From the NCBI RefSeq assembly GCF_044324875.1, contig NZ_CP172185.1: a stretch of 64,000 nucleotides of DNA, one strand, 5' to 3'. The translations under genes and the position numbers were made by a program. Below the pieces are notes generated by a model that worked only from the letters and a program-made list of their open reading frames with translations, was not told the origin of the DNA and did no database searches. Position 1 is the stretch's first letter, and every line of letters starts with the position of its first letter. This stretch comes from Escherichia coli. GTDB lineage: Bacteria; Pseudomonadota; Gammaproteobacteria; Enterobacterales; Enterobacteriaceae. Of the stretch, positions 1,347 through 59,162 are shown piece by piece.

Positions 1347-4300
1347 TTACTCGTCTTCCAGTTCGATGTTGATACCCAGCGAACGAATCTCTTTCAACAA
1401 TACGTTGAAGGATTCTGGCATGCCCGGCTCCATCTGATGGTTGCCGTCCACGATGTTCTTATACATCTTGGTACGACCGTTCACGTCATCAGACTTAACG
1501 GTGAGCATTTCCTGCAGGGTGTATGCTGCGCCGTATGCTTCCAGCGCCCACACTTCCATCTCCCCGAAACGCTGACCACCGAACTGTGCCTTACCACCCA
1601 GCGGCTGCTGAGTAACCAGGCTGTAAGAACCGGTGGAACGCGCGTGCATCTTGTCGTCGACCAGGTGGTTCAGTTTCAGCATGTACATGTAACCAACGGT
1701 TACCGGACGTTCGAACTGTTCACCAGTGCGTCCGTCGTACAGGCGGATCTGACCAGAAGTCGGCAGGTCGCCAAGTTTCAGCAGCTCTTTAATTTCTGCT
1801 TCTTTCGCACCGTCGAACACCGGCGTTGCGATTGGCATACCTTTGCGCAGGTTTTCAGCCAGACGCATAACTTCTTCATCGCTGAAGGTACTCAGGTCAA
1901 CTTTCTGACGAACGTCAGCGCCCAGATCGTAAGCACGCTGGATGAATTCGCGCAGTTTCGCGACTTCTTGCTGCTGTTTCAGCATGGCGTTGATCTTGTC
2001 GCCGATACCTTTCGCAGCCATACCCAGGTGGGTTTCGAGGATCTGACCGATGTTCATACGAGACGGTACGCCCAGCGGGTTCAGTACGATGTCTACCGGC
2101 GTACCGTTTTCATCGTAAGGCATATCTTCGATCGGGTTGATCTTAGAAATTACACCCTTGTTACCGTGACGACCTGCCATCTTGTCACCAGGCTGGATAC
2201 GGCGTTTAACCGCCAGATATACCTTAACAATCTTCAGCACGCCCGGTGCCAGATCGTCGCCCTGGGTGATTTTGCGGCGTTTCGCTTCGAGTTTCTTCTC
2301 GAACTCGTGTTTCAGTTCGTCATACTGCTCAGCCAGCTGTTCCAGCTGATTTTGTTTCTCTTCGTCGGTCAGGCCCAGCTCCAGCCAGCGATCGCGCGGC
2401 AGTTTGTCGAGCTTCTCAGCTTCAACGCCACCGGCTACCAGCACAGCACGGATACGGCTGAACAGACCCGCTTCGAGGATCTGCAGTTCTTCAGACAGGT
2501 CTTTCTTCGCCTGTTTGAGCTGCATTTCTTCGATTTCCAGCGCACGTTTGTCTTTTTCTACGCCATCGCGAGTAAAGACCTGAACGTCGATAACCGTACC
2601 GGATACACCGTTTGGTACTCGCAGAGAAGAGTCTTTAACGTCAGACGCTTTCTCACCGAAGATCGCACGCAGCAGTTTTTCTTCTGGGGTCAGCTGGGTT
2701 TCACCTTTCGGCGTTACCTTACCAACCAGAATGTCGCCACCGGTTACTTCCGCACCAATGTAAACGATACCGGATTCATCCAGTTTGGAGAGCGCAGCTT
2801 CACCCACATTCGGGATGTCAGCGGTGATCTCTTCTGGCCCCAGCTTGGTGTCACGGGACACACACGCCAGTTCCTGAATGTGGATGGTGGTGAAACGGTC
2901 TTCCTGAACAACACGCTCGGATACGAGGATGGAGTCTTCGAAGTTGTAACCATTCCACGGCATGAACGCTACGCGCATGTTCTGACCAAGCGCCAGTTCA
3001 CCGAGGTCGGTGGACGGACCGTCTGCCAGCACGTCGCCACGTTCAACCGGTTCACCCAGAGACACACACGGCATCTGGTTAATACAGGTGTTCTGGTTAG
3101 AACGGGTGTATTTGGTCAGGTTGTAGATGTCGATACCTGCTTCACCCGGATACATCTCGTCTTCGTTAACTTTGATAACGATACGGGAAGCATCCACGTA
3201 CTGAACGACACCACCACGTTTAGCAACCGCAGTTACACCGGAGTCAACGGCAACAGCACGTTCCATACCAGTACCAACCAGCGGCTTATCAGCACGCAGA
3301 GTCGGAACGGCCTGACGTTGCATGTTCGCACCCATCAATGCACGGTTGGCGTCATCGTGTTCCAGGAACGGGATCAGGGACGCACCGACGGATACCACCT
3401 GCTGGGTGGATACGTCCATGTAGTCAACCTGGTCACGGCTGAACAAGCTGGATTCGCCTTTGCTACGGCAAGTTACCAGGTCTTCTACGAAGTGGCCTTC
3501 TTCATCCAGGTTGGAGTTCGCCTGGGCGATAACGTAGTTGCCTTCTTCGATAGCAGACAGGTAGTGAATTTCGTCAGTTACAACACCGTCGGTCACTTTA
3601 CGATACGGAGTCTCAAGGAAGCCGTATTCGTTAGTCTGTGCGTACACGGACAGAGAGTTGATCAGACCGATGTTCGGACCTTCAGGGGTTTCGATTGGAC
3701 ATACGCGACCGTAGTGAGTCGGGTGTACGTCTCGAACTTCGAAGCCTGCACGTTCACGGGTCAGACCACCCGGGCCGAGTGCGGAGATACGACGTTTGTG
3801 CGTAATTTCAGACAGCGGGTTGTTCTGGTCCATAAACTGAGACAGCTGGCTGGAACCGAAGAACTCTTTCACTGCTGCGGAAATCGGCTTAGCGTTGATC
3901 ATATCCTGAGGCATCAGGGTATCCAGATCGCCCAGAGACAGACGCTCTTTCACCGCACGCTCTACACGTACCAGGCCAACGCGGAACTGGTTTTCCGCCA
4001 TTTCGCCAACGGAACGGATACGACGGTTGCCGAGGTGGTCGATATCATCGACTTCGCCTTTACCGTTACGGATATCGATGAGCTTTTTCATAACATCAAT
4101 GATGTCGTCTTTGCTCAGGATACCGGAACCTTCGATTTCTTCGCGCAGCAGAGAACGGTTGAACTTCATACGACCAACCGCAGACAGGTCATAACGGTCT
4201 TCGGAGAAGAACAGGTTCTCGAACAGGCTTTCAGCTGCTTCACGAGTCGGCGGCTCGCCAGGGCGCATCATGCGGTAGATTTCTACCAGTGCGCTCAGAC

Positions 4301-5375
4301 GGTCGTTAGTTGGGTCGACACGTAAGGTTTCAGAGATATACGGGCCGTGATCCAGGTCGTTGGTGAACAGCGTTTCGATACGCTTGTGACCAGACTGGCT
4401 CAGCTTAGCCAGCAGATCCAGGCTCAGCTCCATGTTCGCTGCGCAGATCAGCTCGCCGGTAGACTCATCAATATAGTCTTTAGCAACCACTTTACCTGCG
4501 ATGTACTCAACCGGGACTTCGATCAGTTTGACGTCGTCTTTTTCCAGCTGGCGAATGTGGCGCGCAGTGATACGGCGGCCTTTTTCTACGTACACTTTAC
4601 CGTTAGCTTCGATGTCAAAAGATGCGGTTTCACCACGCAGGCGTTCCGGCACCAGTTCCATCTGCAGCTTGTTATCACGGATTTCAAAGATAACTTTTTC
4701 AAAGAACAGGTCGAGGATCTGCTCTGTGGTGTAGTTCAGGGCACGCAGAATGATGGTCGCAGGCAGTTTACGGCGACGGTCAATACGTACGAACAGGTTG
4801 TCCTTCGGATCGAATTCGAAGTCCAGCCAGGAACCACGGTAAGGGATGATACGCGCGTTATACAGCACTTTACCCGAAGAGTGGGTTTTACCTTTGTCGG
4901 AGTCAAAGAAGACGCCCGGACTACGGTGCAGCTGGGAAACGATAACACGCTCAGTACCGTTGATAACAAAGGTACCGTTGTCTGTCATGAGCGGAATTTC
5001 GCCCATGTAGACTTCTTGTTCTTTAATGTCTTTTACGGTGCCTTCCGGCGCTTCGCGCTCATAGATCACCAGACGCAGTTTAACGCGCAGCGGTGCGGAA
5101 TAGGTCACGCCACGGATTTGACATTCCTGGACGTCAAACACCGGTTCGCCAAGGCGGTAGCTGACGTATTGCAGCTCGGAATTACCGCTGTAGCTCTGAA
5201 TCGGGAATACGGAACGGAAAGCAGCTTCCAGACCATACTGCCCTTCAGGATCTTGCTCGATAAATTTCTGAAACGAGTCAAGCTGGATAGAAAGGAGATA
5301 AGGTACATCCAGAACTTGTGGACGTTTACCAAAATCCTTACGAATACGTTTTTTCTCGGTATAGGAGTAAACCAT
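1347..5375 (-). CDS. rpoB: DNA-directed RNA polymerase subunit beta
   Basis: ORF 1347..5408 contains [35 protein letters not shown]..., full-length RpoB; start placed at the MVYSYTEKK methionine giving 1342 codons. Confidence 0.97.
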
Positions 5376-5620
5376 AGGGTTCCTCAGCTCGCTGACAAGT
5401 CGACCCATCTGTCCATTGAGCGGACAGTTTGTGCAACACTATTTTGTTGACCGGAAAATGGAACACTTTCCGCAATGCCTGTTGCTATCACGCTTAAACC
5501 ATTTCATTGCGATTTACACAGAACGGACGTCCTGTCGCAGTATATTAAGTCGTCGATAGAAACAAGCATTGAAAGGCACAGCAGTAGTCAAACAGTGTGA
5601 AACGCTACTGGTGCCTTACA

Positions 5621-5655
5621 GCGCAAAAAGGCTGGTGACTAAAAAGTCACCAGCC
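5621..5655 (-). terminator. rplL-rpoB intergenic attenuator (partial intrinsic terminator)
   Basis: On - strand: GGCTGGTGACTTTTTAGTCACCAGCC hairpin followed by TTTTTGCGC, between rplL stop and rpoB start; matches the known attenuator position. Confidence 0.7.
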
Positions 5656-5694
5656 ATCAGCCTGATTTCTCAGGCTGCAACCGGAAGGGTTGGC

Positions 5695-6063
<369 letters not shown>

Positions 6064-6129
6064 TTAAATTGTTCCTGAATATCAGAATAAGTTTATACGT
6101 AAGCGAATGCGTTAAAAAGATAACTGCGA

Positions 6130-6627
6130 TTAAGCAGCTTCTTTCGCATCGCGTACAGCAGCCAGAGTACGAACCAGTTTGCCAGCCGAAGCTTCTTTCA
6201 TGGTTGCCATCAGGCGTGCAATTGCTTCTTCGTAGGTCGGCAGAGTTGCCAGGCGGTCGATCTGAGACGCCGGGATCAGCTCACCTTCAAAGGCAGCGGC
6301 TTTGACCTCAAATTTTGCATTCGCTTTCGCGAACTCTTTGAACAGACGAGCAGCAGCGCCCGGGTGTTCCATAGAGTATGCAATCAGGGTCGGACCAACA
6401 AACGCGTCTTTCAGGCACTCGAACGGAGTACCTTCAACAGCACGGCGCAGCAGGGTGTTACGAACAACACGCATGTATACGCCAGCTTCGCGACCTGCTT
6501 TACGCAGTTCAGTCATTTTATCTACAGTCACGCCACGGGAATCCGCAACTACTGCAGACAGCGCGCCTTTGGCTACTTCGCTGACTTCAGCAACAATCGC
6601 TTGTTTGTCTTGAAGATTTAAAGCCAT
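6130..6627 (-). CDS. rplJ: 50S ribosomal protein L10
   Basis: ORF translation [63 protein letters not shown]..., 165 aa. Confidence 0.97.
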
Positions 6628-7043
6628 TAGCTTTGCTCCTGGATGTTTGCCAGAGAAAATCTCTGGAACTCACTTCACTCCTCCAAACGGAGAGAGCGTC
6701 TTAATTACGGTGAGCAGAAACAAGCCAGAATATAAAAGAATAATCTTAGCGTTCTGTCACCGTCTACGCAGGGGATTAAGTTTCTTGCGAAACTCCTGCG
6801 GTCTTCGACGGAGGCCTGGATAGGCCAGGCTCCAACGAACAAATCTTTTCTATCCGTCGCTATTCAGCTTGTGGTGGCGTTGGTTGGCTTCCTTCGTTCG
6901 CACCAGTCACATAGTTAGCTATGCTCCTGGCGACTCACTCAGTTGCCGCCTTGCCACAACCCGAATATCTCGGACATACGTCTGCATTAAGCATTATACG
7001 TGGGGGTAAGATTGTAGACAAAATCACCGCCCACGTAAAGGCA
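6628..7043 (-). promoter_or_regulatory. rplJ leader region (long 5' UTR carrying the L10 promoter and L10(L12)4 autoregulatory site)
   Basis: About 416-nt non-coding gap between rplA stop and rplJ start, as in the E. coli rplKAJL-rpoBC cluster; exact sites not mapped by eye. Confidence 0.5.
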
Positions 7044-8243
<1,200 letters not shown>

Positions 8244-8338
8244 TTACGGGCAAGGCCCATAAAAACAAAAGGCGCGAAATTGTATTCCAATCTCGCGCCT
8301 TGTGCAACGATTAAATCGCCGCTTTTTTGATCGCTGGG

Positions 8339-8884
8339 TTAGGCTTTTTCAACCTGGCTGAAGTCCAGCTCTACCGGGGTCGCACGACCGAAGATAGAAA
8401 CAGACACTTTCAGACGAGATTTCTCGTAATCCACTTCTTCAACAACACCGTTGAAGTCAGCGAACGGACCATCATTAACACGGACCATTTCACCCGGTTC
8501 AAACAGCGTTTTCGGACGCGGCTTATCACCAACCTGCTGCAGGCGGTTCATAATCGCATCGACTTCTTTATCGCTGATTGGTGCAGGACGATCGGAAGTA
8601 CCGCCGATGAAGCCCATCACACGCGGTACGCTGCGCACCAGGTGCCAGCTCGCGTCGTTCATCACCATCTGAACGAGGACGTAGCCAGGGAAGAATTTAC
8701 GTTCGCTTTTGCGACGCTGACCGCCACGGATTTCAACCACTTCTTCGGTTGGTACCATGACTTCACCAAACAAATCTTCCATGTTGTGTAATTTGATATG
8801 CTCACGCAGCGACGTTGCTACGCGGCCTTCAAAACCGGAAAACGCCTGAACGACGTACCAGCGCTTTTTAGGAGCTTCAGACAT
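8339..8884 (-). CDS. nusG: Transcription termination/antitermination factor NusG
   Basis: ORF translation [73 protein letters not shown]..., 181 aa. Confidence 0.97.
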
Positions 8885-8885
8885 C

Positions 8886-9269
8886 TCAGAACCTCAGGCC
8901 AGTGATAAAGGATACCAGGCGAACCAGAATACCATCCAGTCCCCACAGGATCAGTGACATTACTGCGGTAACCGCAGCCACAATCAGCGTGGTGTGCAAT
9001 GTTTCCTGGCGAGTCGGCCAAATGACCTTACGGACTTCGGTACGCGCTTCACGGGCAAAAGCAACGGTAGCTTTACCTTTTGTCGTTAACAGCGCGACAC
9101 CACCCGCTGCAGCAATCAGAATTACTACGGCCAGCGCACGCAGCGGCAGCATAATGTCGCGATAAAGATAGTTGCCGACAATCGCCACCAGGAGCAATGC
9201 CACCACAACGACCCACTTCATCGCTTCCAGGCCGCGCCCGCTTCCTTGAGCTTCGGTATTCGCACTCAT
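8886..9269 (-). CDS. secE: Preprotein translocase subunit SecE
   Basis: ORF translation [94 protein letters not shown]..., 127 aa. Confidence 0.97.
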
Positions 9270-9436
9270 AAACCAACCTGTCAGAAGTTTTCTACAAACA
9301 TTTTCACCCCGCGATCGCGAGGCAAACCAAATCGAAACGCGTATTAGCTTTTCGGATTATACGCCCTCAACAGAGCCTGTCTCAGCAATGATTATGACAA
9401 AGAAAATCACTGATGAGCCAGGTTCTGGTACGAAAG

Positions 9437-9470
9437 CGTGCAAAAAGGGCATCAAATGATGCCCTTTTAG
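9437..9470 (-). terminator. tufB intrinsic terminator
   Basis: Palindrome AAAGGGCATCATTTGATGCCCTTT followed by T-run on the - strand, directly after the tufB stop. Confidence 0.7.
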
Positions 9471-9498
9471 TGCGCATTGCGTCAAATGTTATCGGCAA

Positions 9499-10719
<1,221 letters not shown>

Positions 10720-50168: not shown

Positions 50169-52403
<2,235 letters not shown>

Positions 52404-52677
52404 TTATAATTGAATTAATCCACGGATGCGATAGTTGAGATCTTACATATTGTTGGTTAAAGAGATGTAGATCAAATTGATCGTAATTAAGCTTTTTTGA
52501 TTATGTCCGAATTCGGATAAATGCTTTATAAAAAAGGGTTTTAGCTTCATATCCTTCAAGTAATGAGGGAGAAAACAAGGCTGACAACCTTATTTTCCCG
52601 CCCTCATTTCGAGGCAGCATTTTGTGCTCTGTTTAAAATTTGTGATCACTGTGTGATTTTCACAAAAGCCACACTAT

Positions 52678-53571
<894 letters not shown>

Positions 53572-53604
53572 TTACCTCATCAATCGCTTGTCGTTATATG
53601 TTGT

Positions 53605-53650
53605 GTTGTGAACATCTATCCATTTAGACGTCCAGATGTAAAGATGAAGG
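53605..53650 (-). promoter_or_regulatory. metF promoter with MetJ operator (met boxes)
   Basis: On - strand upstream of metF: ...TTACATCTGGACGTCTAAATGGATAGATGTTCAC..., tandem AGACGTCT-like met boxes. Confidence 0.7.
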
Positions 53651-53863
53651 AAAAGCCGAGGGGCGTCAACCGAAAAATGACCAATGATGGTGAGGAAAAA
53701 TCAGGGAAGTTGAAAAAAACTCATCTTAATTAGAGGCGATAAAAGATTTCTCTATAGAGCAATCCACCTCGCACGTTTTGACTGATATTCTGACAACACA
53801 GCGACACCTGGGCTTATTCGAAAAACAACGTCCTGCCACCGGATGGTGATGCTAAGGCATCTG

Positions 53864-53893
53864 ATTCGGCCTGCGCCCTCGCGTAGGCCGAAT
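53864..53893. repeat. REP-like palindromic element
   Basis: ATTCGGCCT-N12-AGGCCGAAT perfect 9-bp inverted repeat with no adjacent T-run, lying between the metF promoter and the accessory insert. Confidence 0.4.
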
Positions 53894-53949
53894 ACTGGAT
53901 CTGCAAAATCAACTGGTAACAAACAGATGAATCAACTCAATACGTACTT

Positions 53950-55503
53950 TTACTTGATATCTTTCACGCGCATACCGTTGATCTGTTCATCCGTGATGGT
54001 GTTACCCGCTTTGAAGTAATCAACCACGGCGTGATAAACGTAATAACCGCCCGTTGTGTTACGCGCTTTCCCTTCGGTAAAGGCGGTAAAACCATCTCCA
54101 CCATCAGCAAGGAAACTCTGAGTAGCAATGTGGTAAATCGTCGCATCTTCAATGGGTTTGCCATTCAGAGTCAGTGTGATTACCCGCTGACCAACCGGTT
54201 TGCTGCTGTCGTACTTCATTTCCAGGCCTTTCGATACCTGTAAAACGCCATTACTTAAACTTGCGCCGTGTTCCATCAAACTGCGTAATTGTTTACCTGT
54301 GAGATCCATCGTCACCAGTTCATTGGGGAACGGGAAGGTACTGATGACGCCGCCCATCGTAATCGCCCCTGCGGGGATCTCATTGCGAATGCCGCCAGAG
54401 TTGGTTAACGCCAATTGGGTGTTTTTACCCGCCGCTACCAGTAAAGCATCAGCCGCCAGGTTCCCGAGGGAAGCCGATTCACCATAGGCACGTTTTAATT
54501 CAACCGGCGATTTCGCGACCGTTTGTTGCACCACTTCATCAAGCTTTTTATTCCAGCCGTCGATCACCTGTTTCGTTTGCGGATCGGGCTTCCACTCATC
54601 GGCGTAAATGGTTTTAAGCTCGAAGTTTTTCACCGTAAAATCATGCGGCTTCTCTTTGTAGTCGAGGACCAGTTTGCCCACATCAATCCCGCCGCTGTCA
54701 GTGGAGAGGATGAGCGTATTGCCGACTTTAATCGGTTCCGGCGTACCCACATGTGCATGTCCGGTGATCAAAATATCCAGCCCTTTCACCTGACTTGCCG
54801 TCTGAATATCTTTATCCAACGCGCGACGCACATCGGTCCCTCCCATACTGGACTGGCGGGCCGGAACACCTTCGTGGATCAGGGCGACGGTCAAATCAAC
54901 CTTGCCTTTGAGTTCATCGATATAACGTTGTAGCCATTTAATTTCATCACGCGCCTCAATACCCACTCGCGTTGCCGCAGATACCGTGTCATTAAAGGCA
55001 AATACACCGTGCAAACCTATAACGCCTATTTTCACACCGTCTTTTTCGATGATGGTATAGGGCTTATCCCAGAATGATTTACTGCTGTTCTGATAAAAAA
55101 CATTGCCCTGCACAATCGGGAATTTTGCCTGACTCAACTGTAATAATGTGTTGTCCCAGCCGTGGTCAAATTCATGGTTGCCTATCGTGACGGCATCAAA
55201 CGGCATAGTATTCATAATATCGATAATAGCCTTACCTTTGGTCAGGCTGCTGATATAGGGCCAGGTAAAATAGTCGCCCGCATCAAAAAACCATGTCGCT
55301 TTATTTTTTGCTTTTTCTTGCTTAACCAGCGTAGTGATATTTGCCCAGCCGCCAATATCCCGTTTACCGTCAGCGATCCACGGCACTTTATAAGGCTCGA
55401 CATGTGCATGGAGGTCGTTGGTATAAATGATGGTGACATCTTTAGCGCAAGCCCAGAATGGCAGTGTTAATGCGATACCCGCAGCAAGTATTTTAATTTT
55501 CAT
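53950..55503 (-). CDS. Secreted bifunctional metallophosphatase / 5'-nucleotidase (UshA/CpdB family); not present at this locus in K-12
   Basis: 517-aa ORF: N-terminal signal peptide [20 protein letters not shown]; metallophosphoesterase motifs DLHAH, GDYF, GNHEFD, GHAHV; C-terminal 5'-nucleotidase motifs [20 protein letters not shown]; good SD (AAAGGGA) upstream. Confidence 0.85.
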
Positions 55504-55559
55504 AAACAGTCCCTTTCAGTGAGATAAAGGATTGCTACATTACGTTCTGAAAGAGTTAT

Positions 55560-55581
55560 TTATGTGAGAGTAATCACATCC
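55560..55581. promoter_or_regulatory. Candidate cAMP-CRP binding site in the divergent promoter region of the two accessory genes
   Basis: TTATGTGAGAGTAATCACATCC: TGTGA-N6-TCACA half-sites at 55563..55578, about 65 bp from each start codon. Confidence 0.5.
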
Positions 55582-55635
55582 ACAGGGGAGCGTTGCCGGA
55601 CAAAATCAACGACCATGTGAAATCGTTGGTGATAT

Positions 55636-56766
55636 ATGTCGACTCTGTTTACGATTAATGCCTGCAAGTCGTTTGGTTGCCGTAATTTAGGGCAGCCAAC
55701 ATCGACAGATTATAGCTGGCCCGACTATCGACTGGGTTATCCGGCATTGCACTGTCGGGCATGTGGCAGTTACCCGCCGTTGTTTGACGAGCAACAATTT
55801 CGTGACTGGTTGACAGTTCACTTATCTACTTTTGCAACAGAGAAAGGCCATTTTTGCCCGGTATGTTATGGCACAGAGACGATTTGTTATGGTCACAATC
55901 CACAGGGTTCGCAACGCATTCAATGCCGTAACTGCAAAAAAGTATGGACACCCAAACAATATCAGAAAGAAATAACGCCTCCCGAAATAATCGAAACGGT
56001 TGCTTTTCTCGTGCCATTTCAGGGAGTCAGCAGCGGGCAGAAACTGTATGTTTTAATCAGTTTTGATGCTCTTCGCGGTAATATTCTTCATCTTTCTACT
56101 AATTACACGCAGCATCAGGCTGGAGAAAGTCTGCATTATCGATACAGAGGAAATGCAGAACCAGAGTTACACGACAATAATATTGTACAACGCGTTGATA
56201 TGCGCGAAGCACAATTTCTACGCCGCAGTCAGTTTGATGAAATTCAGTATGGCAGCGCAGCGCTCAAGCGCAATGCCAAAGGCATTATTCTGCGTCCGGT
56301 TATCACAGCGCACGGGCATTTTAGAGTACTGAATATTTTATTCCCTACAGTAAAAACACATGTAATTTCACACGAGTGTTTTTTAAGAGGTGCGATTATT
56401 ACGGCCTGGGCAGAACTGTTTCGCCAACAGCAAGGTGAGATTTGGTTTATTGAAGAGGAAATAGCTGACTATACCGATAATACGCCCTGGCGTTTTCAGG
56501 GAACAACTTATCACGGCTGGTGGAAAAATCAGTGGCAACTTTGGGGTCAGGGCAAAAATCGTAAAATGGTATGTGCATTAACAGGCGGAAATAACAGCAA
56601 AGCTGAAATGCTCTCTTTCGCAACCAGCAGACATTTTATCGACTGGCTACATAAACAAGCAGTATTTACTCACAGCACCCCGCTTTCCGCAGGGCGCGTT
56701 ACGCAAATACTGCTTTCTCTGGCTCAGGATTACAACAACTGCGCCAGCCGGTTGATATCCGACTGA
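55636..56766 (+). CDS. Cys-rich hypothetical protein with two N-terminal zinc-ribbon motifs (second resembles transposase-type IS1 InsA / IS1595 ribbon) and an unrecognised C-terminal domain; not present in K-12
   Basis: 376-aa ORF in AT-richer DNA; CKSFGC...HCRAC and CPVCYGTETICYGHNPQGSQRIQCRNCKKVW (compare IS1 InsA CPSC...GHQRYLCSHCRKTW); last ~12 codons overlap the metL 3' end on the opposite strand. Confidence 0.7.
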   Translation: MSTLFTINACKSFGCRNLGQPTSTDYSWPDYRLGYPALHCRACGSYPPLFDEQQFRDWLTVHLSTFATEKGHFCPVCYGTETICYGHNPQGSQRIQCRNCKKVWTPKQYQKEITPPEIIETVAFLVPFQGVSSGQKLYVLISFDALRGNILHLSTNYTQHQAGESLHYRYRGNAEPELHDNNIVQRVDMREAQFLRRSQFDEIQYGSAALKRNAKGIILRPVITAHGHFRVLNILFPTVKTHVISHECFLRGAIITAWAELFRQQQGEIWFIEEEIADYTDNTPWRFQGTTYHGWWKNQWQLWGQGKNRKMVCALTGGNNSKAEMLSFATSRHFIDWLHKQAVFTHSTPLSAGRVTQILLSLAQDYNNCASRLISD

Positions 56767-59162
56767 ATCGCCCCGGCGGTGACATCGCGCCCTGCGCCTG
56801 GTCCGCGGATCACCAGAGGGTTATCGCGATACCAGCGGCTTTCGATGGCAAAGACGTTATCGCACGGCAGCAGTGATGCCAGCGGATGGTCTTCACGCAC
56901 CGCTTCCACGCCCACACGCGCTTTGCCATTGGCATCGAAACGCGCCACATAGCGCAGCACCAGCCCCATTTCGCGGGCCGCTTCCAGTCGTTGCACCATC
57001 TGCTCGTTAAGTTCATCGCCGTTTTCAAAGAAATGGTCGATGCTACCGCCTTCGCAATGGGCAGGCACCAGCGATTCCACGCGCACCTGATCTGGTTCGA
57101 TGTCGTAACCCGCTTCACGCGCCAGAATCACCAGCTTGCGCATCACGTCTTTGCCGGAAAGGTCATCACGCGGATCAGGCTCGGTTAAGCCCTGCTGCCA
57201 CGCCTGATCCACCAGCTCGGTAAACGGCACGCTACCGTCGAATTGCAGGAACAGCCAGGAGAGCGTGCCGGAGAAGATCCCGCTGATCGACAAAATAGTA
57301 TCGCCGCTGTCGATCAGATCGCGCACGGTATGGTTGATCGGCAAGCCCGCACCGACGGTGGCGTTGTACAGCCAGTGACGCCCGGTTTTTTCGAAGGCGT
57401 CGTGGATCTGGCGATATTTATTGCTGTCGCTGGCTCCCGCCAGTTTGTTGGCGCTGATGACGTGGAAACCGTGGCTGGCAAAATCGAGATACTGATCAGC
57501 AAGCTGCTGGCTGGCGGTAACGTCCAACACCACTAAATCATCATACGGATGGGCGCGCATCCACAGGAACAGCGACTCTTCATCCTGCTCGACCGCTTCA
57601 TCGTTGAAGAAGGCTAACGCGCGGCTGGCGTCCAGCCCGTCATAGCTCAACAGGCTGCGGCGGCTGTCCACCACGCCTGCCAGCACAAATTCAAAGCCGG
57701 TACGCGCCGAAAGCGTGCTCTGCTCACGGGCGAACAGTTCCAGCCAGCGGGAACCGATATTGCCCTTGCCGAACAATACCAGGCCGATGCGTTTTTCTGC
57801 GCGGAAGACGGACTGATGCAGCCCCTGAATCAGGCTTTCGGTTGGTCCGGTGCGCAGTACTGCCACCAGGCTGATGCCGTCATCGGACTGCCAGGTAAAT
57901 TCGACCGGCTGGCCTTTCAGTTGCTGCCAGAAGCGGTGGCAATGCAGCGGGTTACGGGTGACACCCGCCCCAACCATCGCCACCAGCGCCAGCCCCTGAC
58001 GCAGGCGCAGTTCGCCAGGTAATCCCGCTTCGTCGAGGATTTTCAGCGCACTGTCGGCCACTTCTGAGGTGTAGCAAAATTGCAGCAACTGGCGATCGTT
58101 ATGCACGCCAACCGCCAGTGGGCGCACCTGAGCACGTTTCAGGATCTGGTCGATCTCTTTATGCGCCAGTTTGAAATCCTGGCTGGCGGGCACCTGAAAC
58201 TCAATCAAGCAGACATCATCATGGCTGGTGACAATACGCGCACCAGTACCGGAGGCCAGCACGCGTTCAATGCGCGTGGAACCTTGATCCGGCGTGTAGC
58301 TACAGCGCAGTTGCAGGTCGATTTCGCTGCCAGAAACTGGCTGTAAAGTACGGGCGTGAAGAACGGGAGCCGCCAGACGCGCCAGTTCGCTGGCCTCATC
58401 CAGACGCAGCAACGGCAGCAGGCAGGCATCTTTCACTTTACGCGGGTCGGCGCTGTATACCCCGGCGACGTCGCTCCAGATGGTTACGCGGGAAACTCCC
58501 GCCAGCGCACCGATTTGTGTCGCGGAATAGTCGGAACCGTTACGCCCCAGCAGCACCGTTTCACTGGCGTTGTTACGGCTGATAAACCCGGTCACCACCA
58601 GACGTTTGCCCGGATGTTGTACCAGTAGCTGTTGCAGCAACGGGTAAGAAAGTCCTTCATCAACCTGCGGTTGCGCAGCGCGTTCAGCGCGTAAAAACTC
58701 GCGGGCATCAAGCCAGGCCGCTGGCAGCCCTTGTTGATTAAGTACCGCAGACATCAGGCGCGCCGACCACACTTCGCCGTGGCCCACCACTTCCGCATAC
58801 ACCGCGTCGTTAATACCGCTGTCGAGCAGCGCCGCCAGGCGTTCCAGATCGCTGACAAAAGCGCTAATGAGGCTATCGGCTTCTTCGGCGGGTAACAGGC
58901 CGCTAATCAGATCGCACTGATAGCGACGCAGCGTTTGTTGAACCTGATGCGCAGAGAGACGATCGGTCTGGCTTAGTTTCAACCAGTTAATCAACTGGTT
59001 AGTGGTGCTACCGGCGGCGGAAACCACCATCATATCGTCAGGCTGAGAGTACTCCGCCATAATGCCCGCGACACGCAAATAACACTTCACATCAGCCAGA
59101 CTACTGCCACCAAATTTATGCAGTTGACGACCTTTCGCCCCTGCCTGCGCAATCACACTCAT
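56730..59162 (-). CDS. metL: Bifunctional aspartokinase II / homoserine dehydrogenase II
   Basis: ORF translation MSVIAQAGAKGRQLHKFGGSSLADVKCYLRVAGIMAEYSQPDDMMVVSAAGSTTNQLINWLKLSQTDRLSAHQVQQTLRRYQ...DINRLAQLL, 810 aa. Confidence 0.96.
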   Translation of the reverse strand: MSVIAQAGAKGRQLHKFGGSSLADVKCYLRVAGIMAEYSQPDDMMVVSAAGSTTNQLINWLKLSQTDRLSAHQVQQTLRRYQCDLISGLLPAEEADSLISAFVSDLERLAALLDSGINDAVYAEVVGHGEVWSARLMSAVLNQQGLPAAWLDAREFLRAERAAQPQVDEGLSYPLLQQLLVQHPGKRLVVTGFISRNNASETVLLGRNGSDYSATQIGALAGVSRVTIWSDVAGVYSADPRKVKDACLLPLLRLDEASELARLAAPVLHARTLQPVSGSEIDLQLRCSYTPDQGSTRIERVLASGTGARIVTSHDDVCLIEFQVPASQDFKLAHKEIDQILKRAQVRPLAVGVHNDRQLLQFCYTSEVADSALKILDEAGLPGELRLRQGLALVAMVGAGVTRNPLHCHRFWQQLKGQPVEFTWQSDDGISLVAVLRTGPTESLIQGLHQSVFRAEKRIGLVLFGKGNIGSRWLELFAREQSTLSARTGFEFVLAGVVDSRRSLLSYDGLDASRALAFFNDEAVEQDEESLFLWMRAHPYDDLVVLDVTASQQLADQYLDFASHGFHVISANKLAGASDSNKYRQIHDAFEKTGRHWLYNATVGAGLPINHTVRDLIDSGDTILSISGIFSGTLSWLFLQFDGSVPFTELVDQAWQQGLTEPDPRDDLSGKDVMRKLVILAREAGYDIEPDQVRVESLVPAHCEGGSIDHFFENGDELNEQMVQRLEAAREMGLVLRYVARFDANGKARVGVEAVREDHPLASLLPCDNVFAIESRWYRDNPLVIRGPGAGRDVTAGAIQSDINRLAQLL

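Follow-up and report, generated by a model that had tools for sequence, protein, structure and literature searches.

The dimetal 5′-nucleotidases form a large superfamily (22,801 representative proteins at E < 1e-3), to which Escherichia coli contributes UshA (PDB 1USH), a periplasmic enzyme of two domains in which a dimetal ligand set and a His-Asp pair are combined with a clamp of the Phe429/Phe498 type. CpdB, a 2′,3′-cyclic phosphodiesterase/3′-nucleotidase, is also periplasmic, and the eukaryotic enzymes CD73 and the snake-venom 5′-nucleotidases are glycosylphosphatidylinositol-anchored dimers with another biological role. A 2026 comparative genomics study of the avian pathogenic E. coli (APEC) strain BEN2908 described the metL..metF region of the chromosome as "GR 31", containing a Tsx-like open reading frame (ORF) and three UshA-domain ORFs, and proposed that these genes act as a system in which nucleoside degradation and transport are coordinated (PMC12928451). 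The present work concerns a nucleotidase gene, given here the working name NT-C, that lies in the same region in a stretch of 64,000 nucleotides (the window) of the E. coli assembly GCF_044324875.1 (contig NZ_CP172185.1). The gene order on this part of the chromosome is yijE, katG, metF, NT-C, a 376-codon ORF on the other strand (the partner gene), metL and metB. NT-C is already known, in that RefSeq genomes annotate it as a "bifunctional metallophosphatase/5′-nucleotidase", a near-identical structure is in the PDB and its island is in print. Altogether, we consider it likely, with a probability of about 0.72, that NT-C is a Sec-exported, soluble periplasmic dimetal nucleotidase used for scavenging, which belongs to a module apparently under CRP control and is carried in this strain as a probably weakened allele with tryptophan at position 81 (W81).

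A sequence-only reading of the locus had proposed a secreted metallophosphatase of the UshA family, distinct from UshA and CpdB and set in an accessory context. The 517-residue ORF indeed runs uninterrupted from ATG to TAA on the minus strand (Table 1), and each of the motifs named in that reading is found, i.e., DLHAH at 30-34, GDYF at 76-79, GNHEFD at 108-113, GHAHV at 248-252, NSGGIR at 368-373 and FPF at 390-392. Profile searches gave significant matches to both the Metallophos and the 5_nucleotid_C domains. Residue conservation was followed in an alignment of NT-C that included UshA of K-12, both island paralogs and 56 further homologs. The metal ligands are all intact, namely D30, H32, D77, N109, H210, H249 and H251, corresponding in the same order to D41, H43, D84, N116, H217, H252 and Q254 of UshA, and the catalytic pair H110/D113 (H117/D120 in UshA) is likewise kept. 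The alignment also shows the conservation of the nucleotide-binding residues R373, F392, N394, F464 and D470 (R410, F429, N431, F498 and D504 in UshA), where F392 and F464 make up the base clamp, and where R373 and R338, the latter within the subfamily motif LxR-xYG, are the phosphate-binding arginines. Comparison of E. coli alleles indicates strong purifying selection, with a ratio of nonsynonymous to synonymous divergence (dN/dS) of 0.05-0.07 at dS 0.07-0.15.

NT-C is therefore a member of the dimetal 5′-nucleotidase superfamily, yet it is not orthologous to UshA, CpdB, NadN or SoxB. Its distinctness from the K-12 enzymes holds in sequence (24% identity to UshA, 22-25% to CpdB) and in length (517 residues against 550 and 647, respectively), and none of the NCBIfam equivalog cut-offs is reached. 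The UshA model NF007109 scores 147.5 bits against a cut-off of 600, the NadN model TIGR01530 130.2 against 436 (with a Pfam NadN_nucleosid_C match at E 0.14) and the SoxB model TIGR04486 149.1 against 550, with no sox genes in the vicinity. The CpdB models NF006938 and TIGR01390 score 97.6 and 96.8 bits against cut-offs of 486 and 883, over the N-terminal domain only, and the model of the trifunctional enzyme YfkN gives a sub-threshold 180 bits. The label "UshA-family" thus stands at the superfamily level and fails at closer range, since the UshA score lies so far under its cut-off and the nearest solved structures outside the group of NT-C itself are, best first, the Thermus thermophilus 5′-nucleotidase 2Z1A (2.5e-45), the venom enzymes and CD73 (1e-34 to 1e-30), NadN (2e-28) and only then UshA (2e-22).

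NT-C is 33 residues shorter than UshA, its His251 replaces the ligand Gln254, and the segment that carries Arg375 and Arg379 in UshA is built differently. CpdB shares the N-terminal metallophosphoesterase motifs, whereas its C-terminal domain is very unlike that of NT-C in length and sequence. The Thermus enzyme gives a full-length alignment (residues 22-499) and shares the motifs GD..QG, GNHEFD, GGIR, PFGN and GGDGF, but it is a distant relative with an Arg-rich RRRESNLGNL where the NT-C subfamily has LxR-AYGES. CD73 and the venom enzymes show full-length homology that is better than that of UshA and have both phosphate-binding arginines and the Phe clamp in common with NT-C; no orthology is claimed. 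Orthologs with 87-91% identity are found in Enterobacter, Kluyvera and Klebsiella, and more distant ones in Cronobacter, Atlantibacter, Citrobacter and E. albertii (about 70% identity) as well as in Vibrio (55%). In some records, the protein is automatically annotated as "UDP-sugar hydrolase" or "2′,3′-cyclic-nucleotide phosphodiesterase".

The closest relative by far is the protein crystallised as PDB 3IVD/3IVE ("Nucleotidase"), which is about 98% identical to NT-C over residues 19-517 and of which NT-C is an ortholog; the two proteins agree in their motifs and in the predicted start of the mature chain. Ten substitutions separate it from the window protein: G81W, I135V, N288D, Q309P, Q331K, A356V, E400D, V456I, I483T and L508I. 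A gene of the 3IVD/3IVE type occupies the same metL-metF position in strains 042, 536, ECA64 and 2012C-4221. The crystallised protein is probably c4898 of strain CFT073, a structural-genomics target solved in complex with uridine and cytidine. No published biochemistry of this protein was found in the literature searched.

The signal peptide announced by the sequence-only reading is recognisable on manual analysis of the N-terminus, which begins with MKIK, continues with a 14-residue hydrophobic stretch (mean Kyte-Doolittle 1.9) and ends in A18-C19-A20|K21. Orthologs have equivalent cleavage sites of the A-x-A type (ASA|KD, SFA|QN, ALA|QE and VFA|QD), and the crystallised 3IVD protein aligns with the NT-C precursor from residue 19 onward. 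Signal peptidase I is thus predicted to cut after Ala20, and NT-C is predicted to be a Sec-exported, soluble periplasmic protein. Anchoring as a lipoprotein through Cys19 was considered and rejected, as this residue is not conserved (it is Ser in Enterobacter) and the Trp at -2 breaks the lipobox.

One feature of the window protein that the sequence-only reading overlooked, while quoting GDYF, is the Trp that stands two residues further on in place of a near-invariant Gly. Motif II reads GDYFTWPY, against GDYFTGPY in 3IVD, and the complete GDxxxG pattern is lost. The change, Gly81Trp, is caused by a single base at window position 55263 that turns GGG into TGG on the coding strand. Residue 81 lies four residues past the metal-bridging Asp77 and aligns with Gly88 of UshA, and presumably with Gly89 of CD73. 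A query-anchored alignment of 270 homologs, comprising 338 domains (116 close and 222 distant), shows Gly at this position in all 116 close and in 195 of the distant domains (311 of 338), the rest having mainly Ala, Ser, Asp or Thr, and Trp is found in none of the 338. The motif II Gly is accordingly conserved, but it does not formally define the superfamily. As residue 81 is no metal ligand, its replacement is not the inactivating change in a metal-binding residue by which the sequence-only reading said it would be refuted, although it makes the activity of this copy questionable.

W81 is a real minority allele and is derived. The exact W81 protein is present on 96 contigs (143 index blocks) from several independent NCBI accessions, while a protein that differs from it at residue 81 alone, with Gly, is found on at least 1000 contigs. 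None of 5426 complete E. coli genomes contains the exact 61-mer that surrounds the TGG codon; the closest of these, ECA64, differs from the window at 2 of 4232 bases, the codon 81 base being one of them. One further assembly (L007) matches the window without a difference across 7.5 kb. In another (L008, GCA_027274645.1), identity is 100% over the whole island and its TGG codon, the matching stretch reaching from window position 53661 to the boundary with metL. In a comparison covering 50950-58503, the katG, metF and metL genes of L008 nevertheless differ from those of the window at 30, 15 and 38 positions (1.5-2% divergence). Because the islands are identical and the flanking genes have diverged, the W81 island must be present in at least two chromosomal backgrounds. 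It follows from the L008 comparison that the island, or its flanks, was transferred recently by recombination from one E. coli background to another.

Judging from conservation, Gly81Trp is probably damaging and would lower the stability or the activity of the enzyme, because it radically alters a small, near-invariant residue next to the dimetal site and is a derived minority allele of a dispensable gene. Some observations speak against such damage, in that the profile score falls by only 4.1 bits, residue 81 is not a metal ligand and the W81 island has persisted and spread somewhat, with 100% identity in two backgrounds. A clearly less likely alternative is that Trp81 is neutral or merely modulatory and that the window copy is a fully active periplasmic nucleotidase. 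This alternative gains from the integrity of all metal ligands and catalytic residues, from the occurrence of the allele on so many contigs and from the lack of secondary degenerative changes, residue 81 being the sole difference from the common Gly81 protein. It is weakened by the invariance of Gly among the close homologs, with small residues as the only alternatives elsewhere, by the position of the residue just past the bridging Asp in motif II, and by the rarity of the allele, which its parent outnumbers at least tenfold and which the complete genomes lack. Moreover, two thirds of E. coli lack the gene, so that a dead allele could persist by hitch-hiking.

Table 1. Positions and supporting evidence for NT-C and neighbouring features in the window.
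Feature	Positions	Strand	Basis or remark
NT-C, 517-residue exported 5′-nucleotidase-type enzyme	53950..55503	minus	ORF, ATG start, TAA stop
N-terminal calcineurin-like metallophosphoesterase domain (residues 24-252)	54748..55434	minus	Pfam PF00149 Metallophos, E 1.7e-11
C-terminal 5′-nucleotidase substrate-binding domain (residues 335-477)	54073..54501	minus	Pfam PF02872 5_nucleotid_C, E 1.1e-38
Predicted Sec-type signal peptide (codons 1-20)	55444..55503	minus	Sequence features and ortholog N-termini
Codon 81, TGG (Trp)	55261..55263	minus	GGG (Gly) in the other E. coli compared
Spacer between NT-C and the partner gene, 132 bp	55504..55635		89% mean column identity across E. coli, Citrobacter and Enterobacter
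CRP-type core TGTGAGAGTAATCACA, perfect TGTGA-N6-TCACA	55563..55578		Consensus match
Partner gene, 376-residue "cytoplasmic protein"	55636..56766	plus	ORF, divergent from NT-C
Accessory island, short form, 3010 bp	53719..56728		BLAST against K-12; flanked by the metF promoter region and the stop codon of metL
GC-rich hairpin, -20.6 kcal/mol	53863..53895	minus	RNAfold scan; about 55 nt 3′ of the NT-C stop codon, lacking a T-run

The accessory context of NT-C was also borne out. The island that carries it is missing from K-12, where 197 bp (positions 4132268-4132464 of the K-12 record, L004) stand in its place, and its G+C content of 0.44-0.49 is lower than that of the flanks (0.54-0.60). The K-12 segment holds a palindrome (GCCGGATTCGTCGTAAACGCTTAATCCGGCC) resembling repetitive extragenic palindromic (REP) elements. 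This segment was considered as a scar of island deletion and rejected; the two sequences share nothing longer than 8-10-mers, and the K-12 segment appears to be a REP-type palindrome without relation to the island. At a coverage of at least 80%, NT-C and its partner gene are found in 1840 of the 5426 complete E. coli genomes; roughly two thirds have no island. A longer form with an additional tsx/NT-A/NT-B part is present in 659 genomes and includes the islands of strains 536, BEN2908 and UTI89. In strain 536, this form spans 7.8 kb (2939-10346 of the locus L009), in which metL is followed by a tsx-like gene, NT-A (539 residues), NT-B (516 residues), a hypothetical 374-residue ORF back-to-back with NT-C (517 residues), and metF. 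The paralogs NT-A and NT-B, which are 65% and 57% identical to NT-C, respectively, have the same two domains, signal peptides, all the catalytic and substrate residues and Gly at the position equivalent to 81. Neither occurs in the window, whose short island has just the partner gene and NT-C.

Between the window and 536, NT-C is 98% identical while the partner protein (7536-8660 in L009) is only 77% identical, and the final 160 bp of the window sequence before metL (56571-56730) are non-homologous to 536. Such a contrast suggests a mosaic island, in which recombination or a deletion has left a junction within the 3′-terminal part of the partner gene. The back-to-back arrangement of a nucleotidase and a partner gene is also found at metL-metF in Citrobacter. 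Enterobacter hormaechei has it at an unrelated locus, where Tsx and another nucleotidase (two in all) accompany the pair. Because the pair occurs at two different chromosomal sites, the genes travel as a module. The neighbourhood of the Vibrio homolog (L014) has no partner gene and no Tsx and is uninformative in this respect. No Rfam family was detected between 53400 and 56900. The hairpin listed in Table 1 stands between NT-C and the same-strand metF promoter region; it may be a transcript-end or stabilising structure, although a terminator scan found no canonical terminator there.

The spacer between the two divergent genes contains a perfect TGTGA-N6-TCACA, which is the CRP consensus core. 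It is the single match in the 64-kb window, against 0.11 expected, and its centre lies 67.5 bp from the start codon of NT-C and 65.5 bp from that of the partner gene. Citrobacter and 536 keep the core intact, and Enterobacter departs from it at one base. A putative -10 element, TAATGT (55542..55537, minus strand), which was picked by hand and is invariant, would put CRP near -41.5 (class II), and a conserved inverted repeat, CAACGA...TCGTTG (55607-55628), lies 5′ of the partner gene. In the long island of 536, a CRP-like site with one mismatch, TGTGATCTTAGTAACA, is located at 7401-7416 of L009, about 105 bp 5′ of the start codon of NT-B. The arrangement in 536 suggests that NT-B, NT-A and the tsx-like gene may share the same type of control. 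Going by the match to the consensus, the module as a whole appears to be under CRP (catabolite) control. The nucleoside-catabolism genes tsx, deo, udp, cdd and nupG of E. coli are under CRP control, and catabolite control would fit a nutrient-scavenging role.

The partner gene and metL, which lie on opposite strands, share 37 bp at their 3′ ends. The partner protein belongs to a family of 253 members; among the 120 listed, all the named members come from Enterobacteriaceae and are called only "cytoplasmic protein". Besides the window copy, its genes lie at 7536-8660 in L009 and at 9001-10176 in both L010 and L012, always back-to-back with a nucleotidase gene. The protein has two invariant Cys4 clusters that resemble zinc ribbons (C10/C15/C40/C43 and C74/C77/C97/C100) and a well-conserved stretch of 270 C-terminal residues. 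Pfam gave no match below E 1e-3, NCBIfam and PHROGs gave sub-threshold matches to IS1/InsA-type zinc ribbons only, and no relative was found in the PDB. An AlphaFold2 model was too poor to use, with a mean predicted local distance difference test score of 43 and a predicted template modelling score of 0.28. The partner protein could be a regulator or a domesticated protein of the IS1/IS1595 type.

From its homology and its gene neighbourhood, the most likely role of NT-C is the periplasmic dephosphorylation of nucleotides for nucleoside uptake. As in UshA and CD73, the C-terminal domain would hold the nucleotide between two Phe residues, and a rotation and closure of the domains would bring the phosphate to the dimetal centre, where a metal-activated water would attack it with the assistance of His110 and Asp113. 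Nucleoside and phosphate would then be released in the periplasm, and the nucleoside would enter the cell through nucleoside transporters. In strains with the long island, the Tsx-like outer-membrane channel would improve the entry of substrate or product. A scavenging role is proposed because the full form of the module has this Tsx-like channel and two paralogous nucleotidases, and it is favoured over other roles because of the gene neighbourhood. Several points count against this assignment. In the literature searched, no enzymatic assay of NT-C or its paralogs was found; the window has neither the Tsx-like channel nor the two paralogs, which makes the module argument indirect for this strain; a sigma-70 consensus scan gave no convincing promoter for NT-C; and the case for CRP binding consists of the consensus match.

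An alternative function, which we regard as unlikely, is that NT-C destroys or converts signalling nucleotides in an interaction with the host, acting on extracellular adenosine tri- or monophosphate to give adenosine in the manner of CD73, AdsA and NudP, on cyclic di- or oligonucleotides, or on nicotinamide adenine dinucleotide. CD73 and the venom 5′-nucleotidases are indeed among the closest solved relatives besides 2Z1A, the long island has been described from extraintestinal pathogenic E. coli (ExPEC) and APEC strains, and related bacterial enzymes are reported as virulence factors. The neighbourhood nevertheless suggests a nutritional role, with a Tsx-like channel, an expansion of paralogs and a CRP-type site; the island is common in environmental and animal isolates as well as in Citrobacter, Enterobacter and Kluyvera; and an enzyme in the periplasm, away from the cell surface, can reach nucleotides of the host to a limited extent only.

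Somewhat less probable again is a non-nucleotide or diester substrate, i.e., that the enzyme is solely a pyrophosphatase of uridine diphosphate (UDP)-sugars or cytidine diphosphate-alcohols, a 2′,3′-cyclic phosphodiesterase or a SoxB-like hydrolase. Such substrates could be read from the comparable NCBIfam scores of SoxB (149 bits), UshA (147) and YfkN (180) and from the names given to some homolog records. However, these scores are far under the curated cut-offs, the names are automatic annotations, the Phe clamp, Asn394, Asp470 and the phosphate-binding Arg of true 5′-nucleotidases are all kept, and 3IVD/3IVE are probably complexes with nucleosides. Finally, that the TGG codon is a sequencing or assembly error, as its absence from complete RefSeq E. 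coli genomes might suggest, or that NT-C is a chance ORF or a pseudogene, is rejected, since the exact W81 protein is on record on many contigs, the codon is identical in L007 and L008, and the full-length ORF shows strong conservation and purifying selection.

Beyond the scavenging enzyme that we favour, a broader but rather doubtful extension would be a CRP-controlled nucleotide-harvesting system of Enterobacteriaceae, with up to three nucleotidases, a Tsx-like channel and the zinc-ribbon protein as a new dedicated regulator or sensor, in which the paralogs would have distinct substrate ranges beyond those of UshA, CpdB and AphA, possibly including signalling nucleotides. If this were true, the Trp81 allele would be a natural hypomorph for dissecting the system.

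NT-C itself is an ordinary, already catalogued accessory enzyme that matters little as it stands, and its substrate range is unreported in the literature searched despite the solved structure. What is added here is the Gly81Trp minority allele, the short and long islands with their frequencies, and the zinc-ribbon partner and CRP-type site, both of them conserved. Gly81Trp provides, ready-made in nature, a test of a near-invariant residue of motif II in a superfamily that includes the drug target CD73. More generally, E. coli strains differ in their set of periplasmic nucleotidases, one third having NT-C and one eighth having three paralogs and an extra nucleoside channel, and these differences could affect growth on nucleotides, RNA and DNA in the gut or in urine, as well as the outcome of nucleotide-based assays.

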